NCBI GenBank assembly: GCA_038058635.1
Contig: JBBUAP010000002.1
Location: 20,948 to 84,947 of the forward strand
DNA: 64,000 nt
Source of the DNA: Patescibacteria group bacterium
GTDB lineage: Bacteria; Patescibacteriota; UBA1384; 2-12-FULL-50-11
Direction of reading: 5' to 3'
The notes beneath the pieces were generated by a model. It was not told the origin of the DNA and searched no databases. It was given only the letters and a program-made list of their open reading frames with translations. A program made the position numbers and the translations under genes. Positions within the stretch are counted from its first letter, which is position 1. Each line of letters begins with the position of its first letter. Of this stretch, positions 59,561 to 64,000 are shown one piece after another.

Positions 59561-60210
59561 TACTAAGTTCTAAGTCCTTTCCGACCACGGGGCCGAAACG
59601 GAATTACAATTAGCTTATTAACAATTGACACAACCGTCAGTTGAGTGTTTTCTGCCCCCGCAGAATCATTCAAGCATTTGGCGGTTGCAAGAATGCCAGT
59701 TTACGAGAATGGTTATTCTTCGCTTCATGCGAAGAAGATGCACCAAGGGCGTAAGCCCCTGGAGCATTATTTAACTCGTACCCCTGCGCAAAGCGCAGAG
59801 CTGCTAGCCACTGGCTGGTGGCTTCTAGCTGAGTACAGGGTGCACGGAAGCTTTATGCTTCTATATATGAGAGTTTGATCATGGCTCAGGATGAACGCTG
59901 GCGGCGTGCCTAAAACATGCAAGTCGAATGGGTTAGACCCATGGCGAACGGGTGAGTAATGCACAAGAACTTGCTCCGAAGTTGGGGATATCCCCTCGAA
60001 AGAGGGAGTAACACCCAATGGTCTCAGCCCCAGTTTAAGGAAGAGACTACCAATAATTTGGTTAGTCGTTGCTTTAAACTGGAGCTGAGTAAAAATTTAT
60101 TGCTTCGGAAGAGGCTTGTGTCCTATCAGCTAGTTGGTGAGGTAATGGCTTACCAAGGCGATGACGGGTAGTTGGTCTGAGAGGATGACCAGCCACAGTG
60201 GAACTGAGAT

Positions 60211-60951
60211 AAAATTTTGTCTCCATGGTAAAGAAATTTCCATGTAAAATTTGGCTAATAACGGTGAAACCCTACTTCATATCAGGTATACTGATATGAG
60301 TATGAGGGCAATACCGTGGGAAGTCGGATGCATAAGTTAGGTAGTGAAAAGTTAGCCTACATTGCGGGGTTTCTTGACGGCGATGGCTGTATTGCCATCA
60401 ATTATGAAAAACGAGAAACCTGCAAATTAGGCTATCGAGTTAGGGTGCGAGTGAGTTTTACCCAAATCTCTACTCGCAGGAAAGTGCTTGATAAACTGTT
60501 TTCCTGGATTAAGTCGGGAACAGTTGATGAATATGAGCACAATCATATGGCGGAGTATGTTATTCGCGATCAGCAGGTTGTGAATAGCCTGCTCAACGAA
60601 TTATTACCCTTTCTCATTGTTAAGAAGGAACATGCGAAATTAGCACTGAAAGTTCTGGAACTAAAACAGGAAAAATACAGTGTCAAATCGCTCAATGAAA
60701 TGCGGCAGTGCGCCATTTCATTGCGAAGTTTAAATCACTACCCCAAACGAATCCATCTTGACCCCGTAACGACTGAGGCTTAAGTGCCGAGACTTCGACA
60801 ATTCGTTGTCGGGGTAAGACGCCAACCCCTCCTCCATACTCAAATATGGAAAGGGTGAAGATATACACTTCTAGCGAAGTGGTTTCTTCACTCCACGGTA
60901 GTGGAGAGGGTGAAGATATAGTCTGCGCCACTAGTAATAGTGGGTAACGTG
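60211..60951 (+). mobile_element. 16S intron 1 (after about E. coli position 328), group-I-like (5' exon ends in U, intron ends in G)
   Basis: Exon sequence ...GGAACTGAGAT | ... | ACGGTCCACACTCCTACGGG. Contains a repeated gggtgaagatata motif downstream of its ORF. Confidence 0.75.
60316..60783 (+). CDS. LAGLIDADG homing endonuclease (single-motif, homodimer type), intron 1
   Basis: LAYIAGFLDGDGCI motif. 155 aa. Confidence 0.8.
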   Translation: MGSRMHKLGSEKLAYIAGFLDGDGCIAINYEKRETCKLGYRVRVRVSFTQISTRRKVLDKLFSWIKSGTVDEYEHNHMAEYVIRDQQVVNSLLNELLPFLIVKKEHAKLALKVLELKQEKYSVKSLNEMRQCAISLRSLNHYPKRIHLDPVTTEA

Positions 60952-61114
60952 ACGGTCCACACTCCTACGGGAGGCAGCAGTTGGGAATCGTCGGCAATGC
61001 CCGAAAGGGTGACCGCGCGACGCCGCGTGGAGGAAGAAGGCCTTCGGGTTGTAAACTTCTTTTATGAGGGATGATTATGACAGTACCTCAAGAATAAGGG
61101 GCTGCTAACTACGT

Positions 61115-62078
61115 GAAACTTGAAATAAAGTTTGGCGCGTAGAAACCTGGTAACAGGTTAGAGAAAATTCCACTATATGCTGGAACACTCTGGAAATGAA
61201 CAAATACTCGCCCACCTGGGCAGTGAAAATTTTGTTTAAACCCGCAAAGTCCACCGCTGGACAGCAATGGGTTCTGGAGCAATCAGCAGGGAAGAGCATC
61301 TCGCTTGAAAAGCGAGGGTAAACTCCCCCCAGAGACTACACGTGGAACCCGATAATGCTAGGATGGTGATATGTCGCTGTTAACACAGCTCGTATCATCG
61401 TTCGATGATGATATGTCGCCGCTTTGCGGCTCGTATCATCACCTCGAGCACTCGGTGATGATATAGTCCAAGCAAGAAGAATGACAGAAAGAGTGAAAGA
61501 GATATTGATTGGTGTAACCCTAGGTGACGGATATTTAACGTCTTTTAGTGGGAAGAGCCAAAAATCCAGCCTAGATATGAAAGTGGCTGAAGATAAATAT
61601 CAGTATCTAAATTGGCTCCGTCACGAGCTCGCAGAGCTAGGCGGATCCGGACTGACTAAAAGAAGTGATAATAATCAATTCCGGCTAGTCACCCAAAGAA
61701 ATTTGGAGATTGGTCGAATACGAACACTTTTCTATCCTAACGGAAAGAAATGTATTCCAAGTAACATCGACCAACTTCTAATCAGTCCGTTAACATTGGC
61801 GATATGGTATCAGGATGATGGTACGCTCGATTATCGAGATAAGTATCATTACAACGCCTTGTTTGCCACTCACCGTTTCTCGCATTCCGGTTGCGAATTA
61901 TTGACATCGGCTCTTCAAAAAAACTTCGGACTTGATGTTCGAGTTTGCCGATGCCAGATGCGAGGCAAAGTTAATTATAGACTTTATGTCGTGTCGAAAA
62001 GCATGGATCGTTTTCTTGGCCTAATTCGGCCATATATCCATCCTTGCTTTCAATATAAAATTCGTGATCTGAAAGCAA
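61115..62078 (+). mobile_element. 16S intron 2 at the S516-equivalent site (CGU|GCCAGCAG)
   Basis: ...GGGGCTGCTAACTACGT | ... | GCCAGCAGCAGCGGTAATAC. The 5' end of the intron carries repeated tcgtatcatc / gatgatat hairpin words. Confidence 0.75.
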
Positions 62079-62095
62079 GCCAGCAGCAGCGGTAA
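61481..62095 (+). CDS. LAGLIDADG homing endonuclease (double-motif), intron 2. The ORF runs into the downstream exon.
   Basis: ILIGVTLGDGYL and LAIWYQDDGTL motifs. The stop TAA lies inside the exon sequence GGTAATAC. The track ORF starts at 61424. Confidence 0.75.
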   Translation: MTERVKEILIGVTLGDGYLTSFSGKSQKSSLDMKVAEDKYQYLNWLRHELAELGGSGLTKRSDNNQFRLVTQRNLEIGRIRTLFYPNGKKCIPSNIDQLLISPLTLAIWYQDDGTLDYRDKYHYNALFATHRFSHSGCELLTSALQKNFGLDVRVCRCQMRGKVNYRLYVVSKSMDRFLGLIRPYIHPCFQYKIRDLKASQQQR

Positions 62096-62351
62096 TACGT
62101 AGGCCCCGAGCGTTATCCGGAATTATTGGGCGTAAAGTGCGCGTAGGTGTTTTTGTAAGTCGGTCGTTAAATCTCACAGCTCAACTGCGAGACCGCGAGC
62201 GATACTACAAGAATTGAGTTTTGCAGGGGCTAGCAGAATTTCTGGAGTAGGGGTGAAATCCGTTGATACCAGAAGGAATACCAATGGCGAAGGCAGCTAG
62301 CTGGGCAATAACTGACACTGAGAGCGCGAAAGCGTGGGGAGCAAACGGGAT

Positions 62352-63421
62352 CGATGGTATCTGGTCCCCCGGTACGGTGACGTATCGGTAAAAATCTGTC
62401 TGTCTGGGTGCGATTTTCGCAAGAAAATTAAAATCCAGAAGACTGTAGTTTGTGCGAGAGCACAGACACAGGCTATATGCTGGAATCTCTGGTGTACTTA
62501 AGGAGCAATCCAACAAGTGCTTCTGTCGCAAGACGGGAACCAGACAATCAGCAGGAAACCGTTACTGATATGATAAAAGTAATGGGATCCTCAGAGACTA
62601 CACGCCAGATGACTCACATGAACCAGAAACTAGCTATGCTGTTAGGATTTCTCTATACAGATGGCTGTGTTTCTCCGAAAGGGAAGAGTTGGCGAATCTA
62701 TTTTGCCGTAAAATCTCAAGAATTAGTCGACTTGTTTCGGGATTGCGTAGTTACAACTTTCGCAATCGATCCGAAACGAGTTCGAGTGAGAGTTAGAACT
62801 TCAGGCCTAACGGCCGCTGTAGTTGACTCGAAGTCTATCGGCACCTACCTAACGACACGATTCGGAACATTCCGAACCTTGAAGTTTGAAAATGGTGACT
62901 TACCGAAGACGAAATTGCCCGTATCCGCCCTGAAAAAGAGTGGCTACGTGGAGGACTTCTTGAGAGTCGCATTCAGCTGTGACGGAGGCGTAAGTCTTTA
63001 TCCAGCAATGCGAAACAGCAAAAACGGAAAAACCAAATGGTTGATTAGAACGGTTTTTATCTCTTGTGCCCATCCACAGATGCGATCGGATTATCTAGCT
63101 TTATTAAAAAGTCTGGGTATCTATGTTCGCAATGTAGCAACGGATGGCAAGCTTAAGATTGAGCGAGAACGAGATATTCGTCTCTTCGCTAAAAAAATCG
63201 GCTTCGTTGATGGAGTGAAAGCAACGCTAGACTCCAAGTTCTGGAGTGGATACGAGAAAAATGAAGTTCTACGGATCCTCATCAACTCGTACGGCCAACC
63301 AGCAACAATCTATCAACTACCCAAATTCAGTGAGTCAATGATATAGTCCGACCTCTGCAGCGATGCAGAGAGATGCGACAATTACCGCAAGTCGTGTCCA
63401 TCGAAAGATGTAACAATATTG
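62352..63421 (+). mobile_element. 16S intron 3 at the S788-equivalent site (GGAU|UAGAUACCC), group-I-like
   Basis: ...GGGGAGCAAACGGGAT | ... G | TAGATACCCCGGTAGTCC. 5' exon ends in U and the intron ends in G. Confidence 0.8.
62450..63346 (+). CDS. LAGLIDADG homing endonuclease (double-motif), intron 3
   Basis: LLGFLYTDGCV and FLRVAFSCDGGV motifs. The real start is probably an internal Met (about 62570, MIKVMGS...). Confidence 0.7.
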   Translation: MCESTDTGYMLESLVYLRSNPTSASVARREPDNQQETVTDMIKVMGSSETTRQMTHMNQKLAMLLGFLYTDGCVSPKGKSWRIYFAVKSQELVDLFRDCVVTTFAIDPKRVRVRVRTSGLTAAVVDSKSIGTYLTTRFGTFRTLKFENGDLPKTKLPVSALKKSGYVEDFLRVAFSCDGGVSLYPAMRNSKNGKTKWLIRTVFISCAHPQMRSDYLALLKSLGIYVRNVATDGKLKIERERDIRLFAKKIGFVDGVKATLDSKFWSGYEKNEVLRILINSYGQPATIYQLPKFSESMI

Positions 63422-64000
63422 TAGATACCCCGGTAGTCCACGCCCTAAACTATGTCTACTAGCGATAGGAAGAGTCGACCCTTTCTGTCGCGAAGCTAAC
63501 GCGTCAAGTAGACCGCCTGGGAAGTACGATCGCAAGATTAAAACTCAAATGAATTGGCGGGGGCTCGCACAAGTGGTGGAGCATGTGGTTTAATTCGACA
63601 GTAAGCGAAAACCTTATCCCAGATTTGACATCTAGCGAATCCCCAAGAAACTGGGGAGTGCCCGTAAGGGAGCGCTAAGACAGGTATTGCACGGTCGTCG
63701 TCAGTTCGTGGCGTGAGCTGTGAGGTTAAGTCCTTAAACGAACGAAACCCTTGTCCTATGTTGGATTTTCATAGGAGACTGCCCTGGTAACAGGGAGGAA
63801 GGTGGGGATGACGTCAGATCCGCGTGGTCTTTATGTCTGGGGCTACACACGTGCTACAATCCTATCGACAATGGGTCGCCAAGCCGCAAGGCGGAGCTAA
63901 TCCCATCAAAAGATAGGTCAGTTCGGATTGGAGTCTGCAACTCGACTCCATGAAGTCGGAATCACTAGTAATCGTGGATCAGAACGCCACGGTGAATACG

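Follow-up and report, generated by a model that had tools for sequence, protein, structure and literature searches.

A groundwater Patescibacteria 16S rRNA gene with three probable mobile group I introns, each encoding a LAGLIDADG endonuclease

What becomes of a 16S ribosomal RNA (rRNA) gene that is broken by several large inserts, and what are the inserts? The question is raised by a Patescibacteria group bacterium (assembly GCA_038058635.1), a member of the Candidate Phyla Radiation (CPR), in a 64,000-nucleotide (nt) stretch of contig JBBUAP010000002.1 (positions 20,948 to 84,947 of the forward strand), hereafter the window. An original prediction, made from the letters alone, read the 16S rRNA gene at the end of this window as split by three inserts, each with an open reading frame (ORF) for a LAGLIDADG homing endonuclease (HE). 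Rfam matches, exon joins and Pfam matches bear this out. We conclude that this groundwater Patescibacteria 16S gene very probably carries three mobile group I introns within the window, each with an intact LAGLIDADG gene.

Results

A 16S rRNA gene in separated exons

Scanning the whole window with Rfam returned two plus-strand matches to SSU_rRNA_bacteria (RF00177), one at 59871-61155 (297 bits, model positions 9-546) and one at 63326-64000 (508 bits), which reaches model position 1370 and is cut by the window end. Two matches to Intron_gpI (RF00028), at 61105-61479 (53.6 bits) and 62392-63370 (51.2 bits), exceeded the curated threshold, a gathering score of 50 bits. Positions 59863/59870-64000 represent the first ~1378 positions of bacterial 16S rRNA, interrupted after Escherichia coli positions 328, 516/517 and 788. 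The inserts measure 741, 964 and 1070 nt, exactly the sizes first given, and the earlier placement of inserts 2 and 3 at S516 and S788 agrees with junctions after 516/517 and 788.

59863..60210, plus strand: 16S exon 1 (E. coli ~1-328), from RF00177 and E. coli alignment; AGAGTTTGATCATGGCTCAG starts at 59870
60211..60951, plus strand: intron 1, group I, 741 nt, site S328; RF00028 43.4 bits (E 1.2e-9), family covariation and an intron-less allele
60952..61115, plus strand: 16S exon 2 (E. coli 329-517, or to 516 if G61115 is intronic), from Rfam, motif anchors and E. coli alignment
61116..62079, plus strand: intron 2, group I, 964 nt, site S516/517; RF00028 53.6 bits; alternative register 61115-62078
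62080..62351, plus strand: 16S exon 3 (E. coli 518-788), from E. coli alignment; carries A526, which pairs with U505
62352..63421, plus strand: intron 3, group I, 1070 nt, site S788; RF00028 51.2 bits and the intron-less allele GGAT/TAGATACC (slash, junction)
63422..64000, plus strand: 16S exon 4 (E. coli 789-1378), cut by the window end; the longer contig runs to A1398

Borders were fixed with conserved exon motifs as anchors and by comparison with intron-less alleles of relatives. When E. coli 16S was aligned globally with cheap gap extension, pieces of exon 2 strayed into the intron, and motif-anchored joins with an alignment of the spliced sequence were used instead. The last base of exon 1 is U60210 and the rRNA continues from A60952; for exon 2 the last base is U61114 or G61115, with continuation from G62079 or C62080; exon 3 stops at U62351 and exon 4 starts at U63422. 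Intron-less relatives read straight through these sites (ACTGAGAC/ACGG, CGTG/CCAGC and GGAT/TAGATACC), and the window's own intron-less junctions are deduced as ACTGAGAT/ACGGTCC, ACGTG/CCAGCAGC and GGGAT/TAGATACC.

The expectation that the exons could be joined into a contiguous 16S held: with the 3' end supplied by a longer copy of the contig, they form 1508 nt colinear with E. coli 16S at 77.6% identity. Alignment of this spliced sequence puts the junctions at 328/329, 517/518, 788/789 and, for a fourth insert past the window end, 1398/1399, on numbering corrected for one base missing from the E. coli sequence used. Within the window rRNA accounts for ~1.36 kb out of 4.13 kb, in line with the small share noted originally, and the whole gene, with four introns counted, spans ~5.1 kb for its 1508-nt rRNA. 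The 530-loop pseudoknot pair is kept as U505-A526, as in 15 of the 21 distinct sequences from the CPR loci examined, where this state is the commonest. Identity to the named CPR loci is 74-80%, no nearer than to E. coli.

The 16S also bears an expansion hairpin of ~45 nt near E. coli ~200 (window 60034-60078). Its helices near 450-470 and 1125-1140 are shortened against the Rfam consensus (window 61076-61078 and 63763-63768), which agrees with reported CPR rRNA reductions.

Group I cores in all three inserts

The consensus of the guanosine-binding paired segment P7 and the joining segment J8/7, GACU...GAUAUAGUC, is present in each of the three introns (60771/60915, 61334/61460 and 62596/63340). 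In intron 3, P1 (5' exon with guide) pairs GGGAU with GUCCC and includes the wobble U62351·G62364, and P10 pairs UAGAUA with UAUCUG. The guide is contiguous (UAUCUG-GUCCC, 62358-62368) and pairs with both the 5' exon end and the 3' exon start; P1 and P10 on one guide sequence are the textbook arrangement. P7 of this intron consists of GACUA at 62596 and UAGUC within GAUAUAGUC at 63340, and the terminal G is G63421.

The ribozyme core of intron 2 occupies its first ~365 nt (61116-61480), with the internal guide sequence (IGS) CGCGUAG at 61136-61142, a wobble of U61114 with G, and P7 formed by GACUA at 61334 and UAGUC within GAUAUAGUC at 61460. Introns 2 and 3 share the canonical ...CAGAGACUACACG... 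(J6/7-P7-P3') and GAUAUAGUCC (J8/7-P7) along with further core strings (repeat families D8, D14, D15 and D19), a resemblance that suggests a common structural type.

Intron 1 has a P1 of GAGAU with GUCUC (IGS 60219-60223) and a U60210·G60219 wobble at the 5' splice site. The 5' strand of its P7 is GACU at 60771-60774, J8/7 and the 3' strand of P7 lie in GAUAUAGUC at 60915-60923, and the terminal G is G60951. The assignment of all inserts to group I thus stands in two ways: inserts 2 and 3 score above the RF00028 threshold, whereas insert 1 scores below it and is assigned by covariation at S328. The original observation that the 5' exon ends in U and the intron in G likewise holds for introns 1 and 3 (U60210/G60951 and U62351/G63421); it had left out insert 2, where there is a real anomaly.

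Covariation among introns at S328

Starting from ~40 close homologues of HE1, the endonuclease of intron 1, in CPR metagenomes, an alignment-based metagenome scan yielded 18 distinct introns at the same site. Their RNAs were aligned with the ORFs removed, in a structure comprising P1-P6, the P7 pseudoknot, two hairpins between P7 and P3', P8 and P9. In the 18 introns, cells at the 54 pair positions hold a standard pair in 89.7% of cases; sliding the 3' partners by 1-3 columns lowers this to 35-43%. At 31 pairs both sides have changed. Covariation scored 0.389 versus 0.159 for shuffled alignments (reached in none of 500 shuffles), a contrast to be read in the light that relatedness inflates shuffle tests and that the structure was derived from the same sequences. 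P4, P6 and P7 are invariant in this family and hence uninformative for covariation. The slid controls, together with multiple pair types in P2, P3, P8 and P9, provide convincing comparative support for the proposed fold.

At the splice site (alignment columns 8/19), five of the 18 introns, the window's included, have U·G and the other 13 have C·A, and the pair co-varies with exon base 328, which is C or U. C·A is an accepted isosteric stand-in for U·G. An alternative core for insert 1, with P7 as AAGAC with GUCU and P6 as AGUC with GACU, was dropped because G251 is not conserved across the S328 family. In the adopted P7 a near-invariant GACU (60771) pairs with an invariant AGUC in canonical style, and with this reassignment the hairpins between P7 and P3' become P7.1/P7.2-like elements. 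Elements of this kind occur in subgroup IA introns.

Duplications beside J8/7

Introns 1 and 2 each contain a duplicated segment next to the catalytic J8/7.

60853..60920, plus strand: 55-nt insertion/duplication in P8/J8-7 of intron 1; repeat search, alignment of relatives, fold z = -3.7
61362..61445, plus strand: two tandem 42-nt units in intron 2; repeat search, alignment of relatives, fold z = -4.3

The insertion in intron 1 repeats GGGUGAAGAUAUA, that is the 3' strand of P8 and J8/7. GGGTGAAGATATA consequently occurs twice, at 60853 and 60908, with the first copy predicted to be sequestered in a hairpin; none of the 17 other S328 introns has the insertion. Each 42-nt unit of intron 2 holds a pseudo-J8/7 (GATGRTGATATGTC; GAUGRUGAUAUGUC) within a long hairpin, and the real J8/7 follows at 61455-61468. 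Intron 2 is ~89 nt longer than its relatives at this point, and the units occur in none of the relatives examined. In the predicted folds of both introns the extra J8/7 copies lie in stable hairpins and the last, canonical copy is free beside P7, so modelled, the duplications look like tolerated copies inside P8.

Three intact LAGLIDADG genes

60328..60783, plus strand: HE1, single-motif LAGLIDADG_1 endonuclease, 151 amino acids from ATG; PF00961, relatives in the PDB, intact motif
61481..62095, plus strand: HE2, double-motif LAGLIDADG_2 endonuclease, 204 amino acids; PF03161, I-SceI match, motif conservation
62609..63346, plus strand: HE3, two-domain LAGLIDADG_3 endonuclease, 245 amino acids from M62609; PF14528, AlphaFold2/Foldseek, homologues

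Profile searches of the ORFs, the check proposed at the outset, placed all three above cut-off: HE1 in LAGLIDADG_1 (PF00961, E 9.9e-13, 49.3 bits against 23.1), HE2 in LAGLIDADG_2 (PF03161, E 3.5e-30 over residues 6-178 as one domain across both motifs, 105.6 bits against 25) and HE3 in LAGLIDADG_3 (PF14528, E 6.7e-9 in two stretches, 36.3 bits against 22.5). The PDB matches of HE1 are I-CreI (E ~1e-14) and I-MsoI (E 2.7e-21), and that of HE2 is I-SceI (E 1.6e-12). A PDB sequence search with HE3 gave nothing meaningful; its AlphaFold2 model (predicted local distance difference test 94.6) superposes over its full length, by Foldseek, on the two-domain monomeric enzymes bI3 maturase, I-AniI, E-DreI and I-Tsp061I (E ~1e-8), a fold of the I-AniI/I-DmoI type. 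The predicted division into one single-motif and two double-motif enzymes is confirmed by these matches.

HE1 has a single, intact GFLDGDG motif, whereas HE2 has LGDG and QDDG and HE3 has YTDG and SCDGG, both pairs invariant in their family alignments. All three enzymes keep the acidic residue at the end of each LAGLIDADG helix, and it does not vary in their family alignments. HE3 has 150 homologues in CPR. More distant LAGLIDADG_2 relatives of HE2 (25-30% identity; L024-L065) occur in many metagenome-assembled genomes (MAGs) from outside CPR, whose hosts include Actinomycetota, Acidobacteriota, a Nitrosotalea archaeon and a cyanobacterium.

Each gene occupies a different place in its ribozyme, and the gene ends run into core RNA or exon. 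HE1, with an alternative GTG start at 60316, occupies the P6 loop, flanked by the strands of P6. Its C-terminus, DPVTTEA and stop (60762-60783), overlaps the 3' strand of P6, J6/7 (GUAAC) and the 5' strand of P7 (GACU), and translation from these elements explains why the peptide DPVTTE is conserved. HE3 sits in the P8 loop, with further in-frame ATGs at 62570 and 62582, and the UAG within the conserved GAUAUAGUC serves as its stop codon (63344-63346). Called gene models run on upstream across the P7/P3' strand, and in homologues J6/7-P7-P3' translates as a conserved N-terminal SSETxR. Endonuclease ORFs that overlap core sequence are known in bacterial group I introns (PMC3984707).

HE2 follows P7/P9, fills the 3' 600 nt of intron 2 and, as originally reported, reads through into the exon. 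Its stop codon, the TAA of GGTAATAC, lies 16 nt into exon 3, and its end, KASQQQR and stop, draws SQQQR from AGC-CAG-CAG-CAG-CGG-TAA, so that the last five codons and the stop are exonic. This position reflects an ORF that runs up to the 3' splice site without meeting an earlier stop. This had been called notable, a judgement that does not stand: among 120 HE2 homologues ~35 end in xSQQQR, 18 end in KIRKFN, and the others stop a few codons past YKIR. In L007-L009, of the KIRKFN class, the next codon is TAG, and the junction G is its last base. The exon-encoded tail is recurrent in the family, is not conserved as protein and is apparently incidental. As excised intron 2 would be a non-stop message, a normally terminated HE2 would be made only from the unspliced precursor.

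The 7-mer AAGCAAG brackets HE2, at 61470-61476 (right after P7) and at 62073-62079 (the last 7 nt of intron 2). ORF insertion may have left it as a footprint, or the first copy may provide an alternative, proximal 3' processing site, 4 nt before the HE2 start codon.

A splice junction at S516 that departs from the rules

A genome scan for the HE2 family found 15 CPR MAGs with the same core-then-ORF layout at S516. Nine of these loci were scanned with Rfam: all eight with a canonical core pass the group I threshold (50-75 bits), and L019, with a divergent core, falls under it.

In the window, P1 sets the conserved U·G wobble at U61114 (U516), the next base, G61115, is paired to C, and the 3' end of intron 2 reads GCAAG/CCAGC, with a single G. 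Two registers follow. If the cut is made after the wobble U516, the intron runs from G to A, with A62078 as its last base; if the intron ends in G62079, it runs from A to G and the 5' exon ends in G517, paired to C. Obeying both rules at once would give an rRNA minus the universal G517. The joins of exon 2 to exon 3 with and without G517 would read ...ACGUGCCAGC and ...ACGUCCAGC, respectively.

Other loci sort into classes by the same junction. Class A (four loci) has U/A at the 5' side and GG/CC at the 3' side and is unambiguously canonical. Class B, with U/G and GG/CC, is compatible with the canon and comprises four loci at which both junctions were read (L006, L012, L013 and L018); L011 has the class B 3' end, and its 5' junction was not found. 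Class C has U followed by G at the 5' side and A or C, then G, then CC at the 3' side, and includes the window, L007-L010, L015 and L019. The guide base opposite 517 is C in all six class C loci when the divergent L019 is excluded, and U in six of the seven others.

Could a changed guanosine-binding site explain a terminal A? The P7 G-binding pair was tested for this and is the same in all junction classes, which argues that the terminal base is G and that the 5' cut in class C falls after G517. A P9/P9.0 helix joining the bases that follow P7 to the 3' end of intron 2 is unconvincing in the window, where both segments are the direct repeat AAGCAAG; in L007-L010 and L015 it is convincing (C-X...X'-A-G).

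For class C one of three things must hold: a cut one base past the wobble, after a G-C pair; a terminal base other than G; or an rRNA without G517. Whether these junctions mark a widespread CPR S516 sub-lineage, in which the single G bars U·G, terminal G and G517 from occurring together and which would represent a natural one-base shift of the splice site, is a proposition that we hold to be evenly balanced on the sequences compared. The sub-lineage would take in at least six of the other 15 genome loci and ~35 of the 120 HE2 homologues, for which the exon-encoded SQQQR tail implies a single-G junction. This junction is the only feature of the locus that departs from known rules, and a class incompatible with the textbook splice-site rules would be of interest to ribozyme specialists.

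A group II-like insert past the window end

Public copies of the contig exist from Hainich groundwater (ENA ERZ1292638 and ERZ1292640, NCBI GCA_964366935.1), and they match the window at every base of the overlap; NCBI names proteins of this contig 'Patescibacteria group bacterium'. Two of the copies come from independent assemblies: over the 4-kb region L002 (ENA) agrees with the window at 100% identity, and L003 (NCBI) does so along the part that it covers. L004 and L005 match only up to the 16S start, where their contigs end (16S position ~50). L002 has a 100-N scaffold gap (13899-13998) and a duplicated 55-bp overlap inside the 16S; these and the L004 and L005 ends are assembly artefacts that could be misread as an extra insertion.

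L002 18049-18871 (~49-871 nt past the window end): fourth insert, group II-like, 823 nt, after A1398; Rfam

The fourth insert scores 36 bits with group-II-D1D4-1 (RF01998; gathering 35), and its domain V/VI scores 32.5 bits with RF00029 (E 2.4e-4), below the gathering score of 40, with the domain V triad CGC. Its last bases, AU, abut exactly the 3' junction deduced from the rRNA. The 5' end is not GUGYG: the junction CACACA/ACAAUAACUGCGCC reads ACAAU, and the 5' bases ACAAUAAC are followed, 8 nt in, by CUGCGCC. A homologue in L008 starts with GGGCG right at its junction, one base upstream. The insert encodes a 201-amino-acid LAGLIDADG_1 protein that reads 48 nt into the 3' exon and, like HE2, would be normally terminated only from the unspliced precursor. 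After it L002 continues with a normal 16S 3' end (CCGCCCGTCAAG...GGATCACCTCCTT).

Discussion

The model that we favour is that mobile self-splicing introns colonised this 16S gene at universally conserved sites. Following group I chemistry, each intron would fold as a ribozyme, guanosine would cut the 5' splice site set by P1, and the exons would then be joined after the terminal G to give a normal ~1.5-kb 16S rRNA. By analogy with their family, each endonuclease would cut an intron-less 16S allele at the insertion site, and recombinational repair would copy the intron in. Such homing would account for the same introns at the same sites in distantly related CPR lineages.

Several points weigh against this model. 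Insert 1 falls under the RF00028 gathering score (43.4 versus 50 bits), and insert 2 appears unable to satisfy both canonical splice-site rules. The duplicated segments beside the catalytic J8/7 could impair the folding of introns 1 and 2. Public assemblies break or carry Ns inside the 16S, so assembly is hard here. Exon continuity, ribozyme cores, covariation, enzyme motifs and folds, intron-less alleles and the recurrence of these elements at the same sites are observed, whereas splicing, endonuclease activity and homing are what we infer.

Of the alternatives, the one that survives best, and that we consider improbable, is that these are real group I introns that have lost self-splicing and need their own LAGLIDADG maturases or host factors, with the ORFs kept for that purpose and not for homing. 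The best structural matches of HE3 include bI3 maturase and the bifunctional I-AniI, the hairpins near J8/7 and the odd intron 2 junction could create a need for protein help, and all ORFs are intact though homing targets are absent in a single-copy gene. However, the catalytic acidic residues are kept in all motifs, whereas maturase-only proteins often lose them, and the patchy spread of the same intron over distant CPR lineages argues for active homing. I-ShaI, one of the LAGLIDADG enzymes from CPR rRNA genes, cleaves its insertion site (PMC11270868).

We find it very unlikely that host RNases of the RNase III type excise the inserts as intervening sequences without ligation, leaving a fragmented but functional 16S in which the cores are relics. 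Each of the three inserts retains an entire group I core, including the invariant GACU...GAUAUAGUC helix that binds G, the compensatory evolution in P1-P9 at S328 implies selection on the fold, and P1 and P10 of intron 3 pair with both exons. Moreover, no functional centres of 16S are more conserved than the 530 and 790 loops, in which breaks would probably not be tolerated, and CPR transcript data point to removal of inserts, to the extent that Brown et al. 2015 is cited for this in PMC11270868. This reading would nevertheless accommodate the intron 2 junction, which is at odds with canonical group I rules, and the duplications that adjoin J8/7 in introns 1 and 2, and bacterial 23S genes offer known cases of fragmenting intervening sequences, which some CPR inserts are suspected to be. 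We give next to no weight to a dead 16S pseudogene or an assembly chimera of introns from other strains, as the broken public contigs (L004 and L005) and the gap and overlap of L002 might suggest, given the 100% agreement of the window with L002 over 4 kb and with L003 as far as it reaches, exons intact in all conserved motifs with the U505-A526 pair kept, ORFs that are all open with catalytic residues present, and matching architecture in relatives from other MAGs.

The mobile introns that we propose belong to a trait already documented in CPR, of which this locus is a clean and fully dissected example. In a survey of 380 CPR 16S genes (Tsurumaki et al. 2024, J Bacteriol, PMC11270868), inserts of 100 bp or more were present in 48%; a single rRNA gene held as many as 16, and the summed inserts of one 16S gene reached 5.6 kb at most. 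The suggestion that three introns are at the high end therefore fails, and this gene has four; the companion statement, that intron-bearing rRNA genes with homing endonucleases are known in CPR, is documented there. By the same Rfam model 35% of the surveyed 16S inserts were group I, LAGLIDADG_2 and _3 were present in 16S group I introns, group II-like inserts clustered at position 1400 and encoded LAGLIDADG_1, and introns with and without an ORF had near-identical RNA (PMC11270868). Our locus resembles these in host group, in combining several group I sites with a group II-like insert at ~1400, in its LAGLIDADG_1, _2 and _3 cargo and in having multiple inserts. It fits the published description in every respect, with no difference in kind, although the surveyed enzymes were predominantly single-domain (PMC11270868) and two of the three here are double-motif monomers. 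What we add to the published CPR surveys compared is the position of the ORF within each ribozyme, the ORF ends that overlap core RNA or exon, the alternation of U·G and C·A at S328, and the rule-breaking S516 junction class.

Parallels extend beyond CPR. S516 and S788, in the 530 and 790 loops, are sites of eukaryotic nuclear rDNA group I introns, some with an endonuclease gene, in the nomenclature of Johansen and Haugen. The eukaryotic S516 introns that are known belong to subgroups IC1 or IE and are not known to carry other than His-Cys box enzymes or no ORF. Positions and element type are thus alike, whereas the S516 cargo here is LAGLIDADG. Salman and colleagues reportedly described, in PNAS in 2012, several introns in one gammaproteobacterial 16S gene, amounting to several kb, with homing-endonuclease ORFs and with splicing shown experimentally; the insertion sites are said to differ from those here. 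That system belongs to another phylum (Gammaproteobacteria), and the present locus is known from sequence alone.

Among the enzymes, HE1 aligns with the homodimeric I-CreI and I-MsoI over ~115 residues, and HE2 with the C-terminal half of the monomeric I-SceI, both at low identity. All five come from group I introns in rRNA genes; the targets are 16S here and organellar 23S/21S for the known enzymes. For the fourth insert, a precedent would be the fungal mitochondrial rns group II introns with LAGLIDADG ORFs that Toor and Zimmerly are said to have reported in 2002. Like LAGLIDADG group II introns, it has D1-D4 and V/VI matches, an AU end and a LAGLIDADG_1 ORF in place of a reverse transcriptase; unlike them, it has the 5' end ACAAU instead of GUGYG and a sub-threshold domain V match.

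The inserts also bear on how such organisms are detected. Intron 2 splits the 515F primer site (window 61113-61115/62079-62095), which has a C526A mismatch as well, and intron 3 splits the 806R site (window 62350-62351/63422-63439); the fourth insert splits the 1392 primer region. Given introns in the primer sites and the mismatch, standard V4 amplicon surveys would miss this organism. Assemblers, for their part, break at this gene.

Other features of the region

Downstream of the 16S, L002 19003-21176 holds a gene for a pilin-like protein and a transfer RNA (tRNA) and no 23S gene, so the rRNA genes are apparently unlinked. Upstream, between the trigger-factor gene and the 16S, a HicB-like antitoxin gene (57325-57591) and a HicA toxin gene (58629-59062), both on the plus strand, stand around clpP (57983-58579). 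Two genes for IS200-type Y1 transposases (53836-54522 and 55359-56141) flank a PBP-family gene (54583-55263) on the minus strand (region 53836-56141), and 53081-53683 holds a DUF3800 gene. A giant ORF of 4647 amino acids (38875-52818, minus strand) has repeated NosD and beta-helix Pfam matches in the annotation of the matching public contig.

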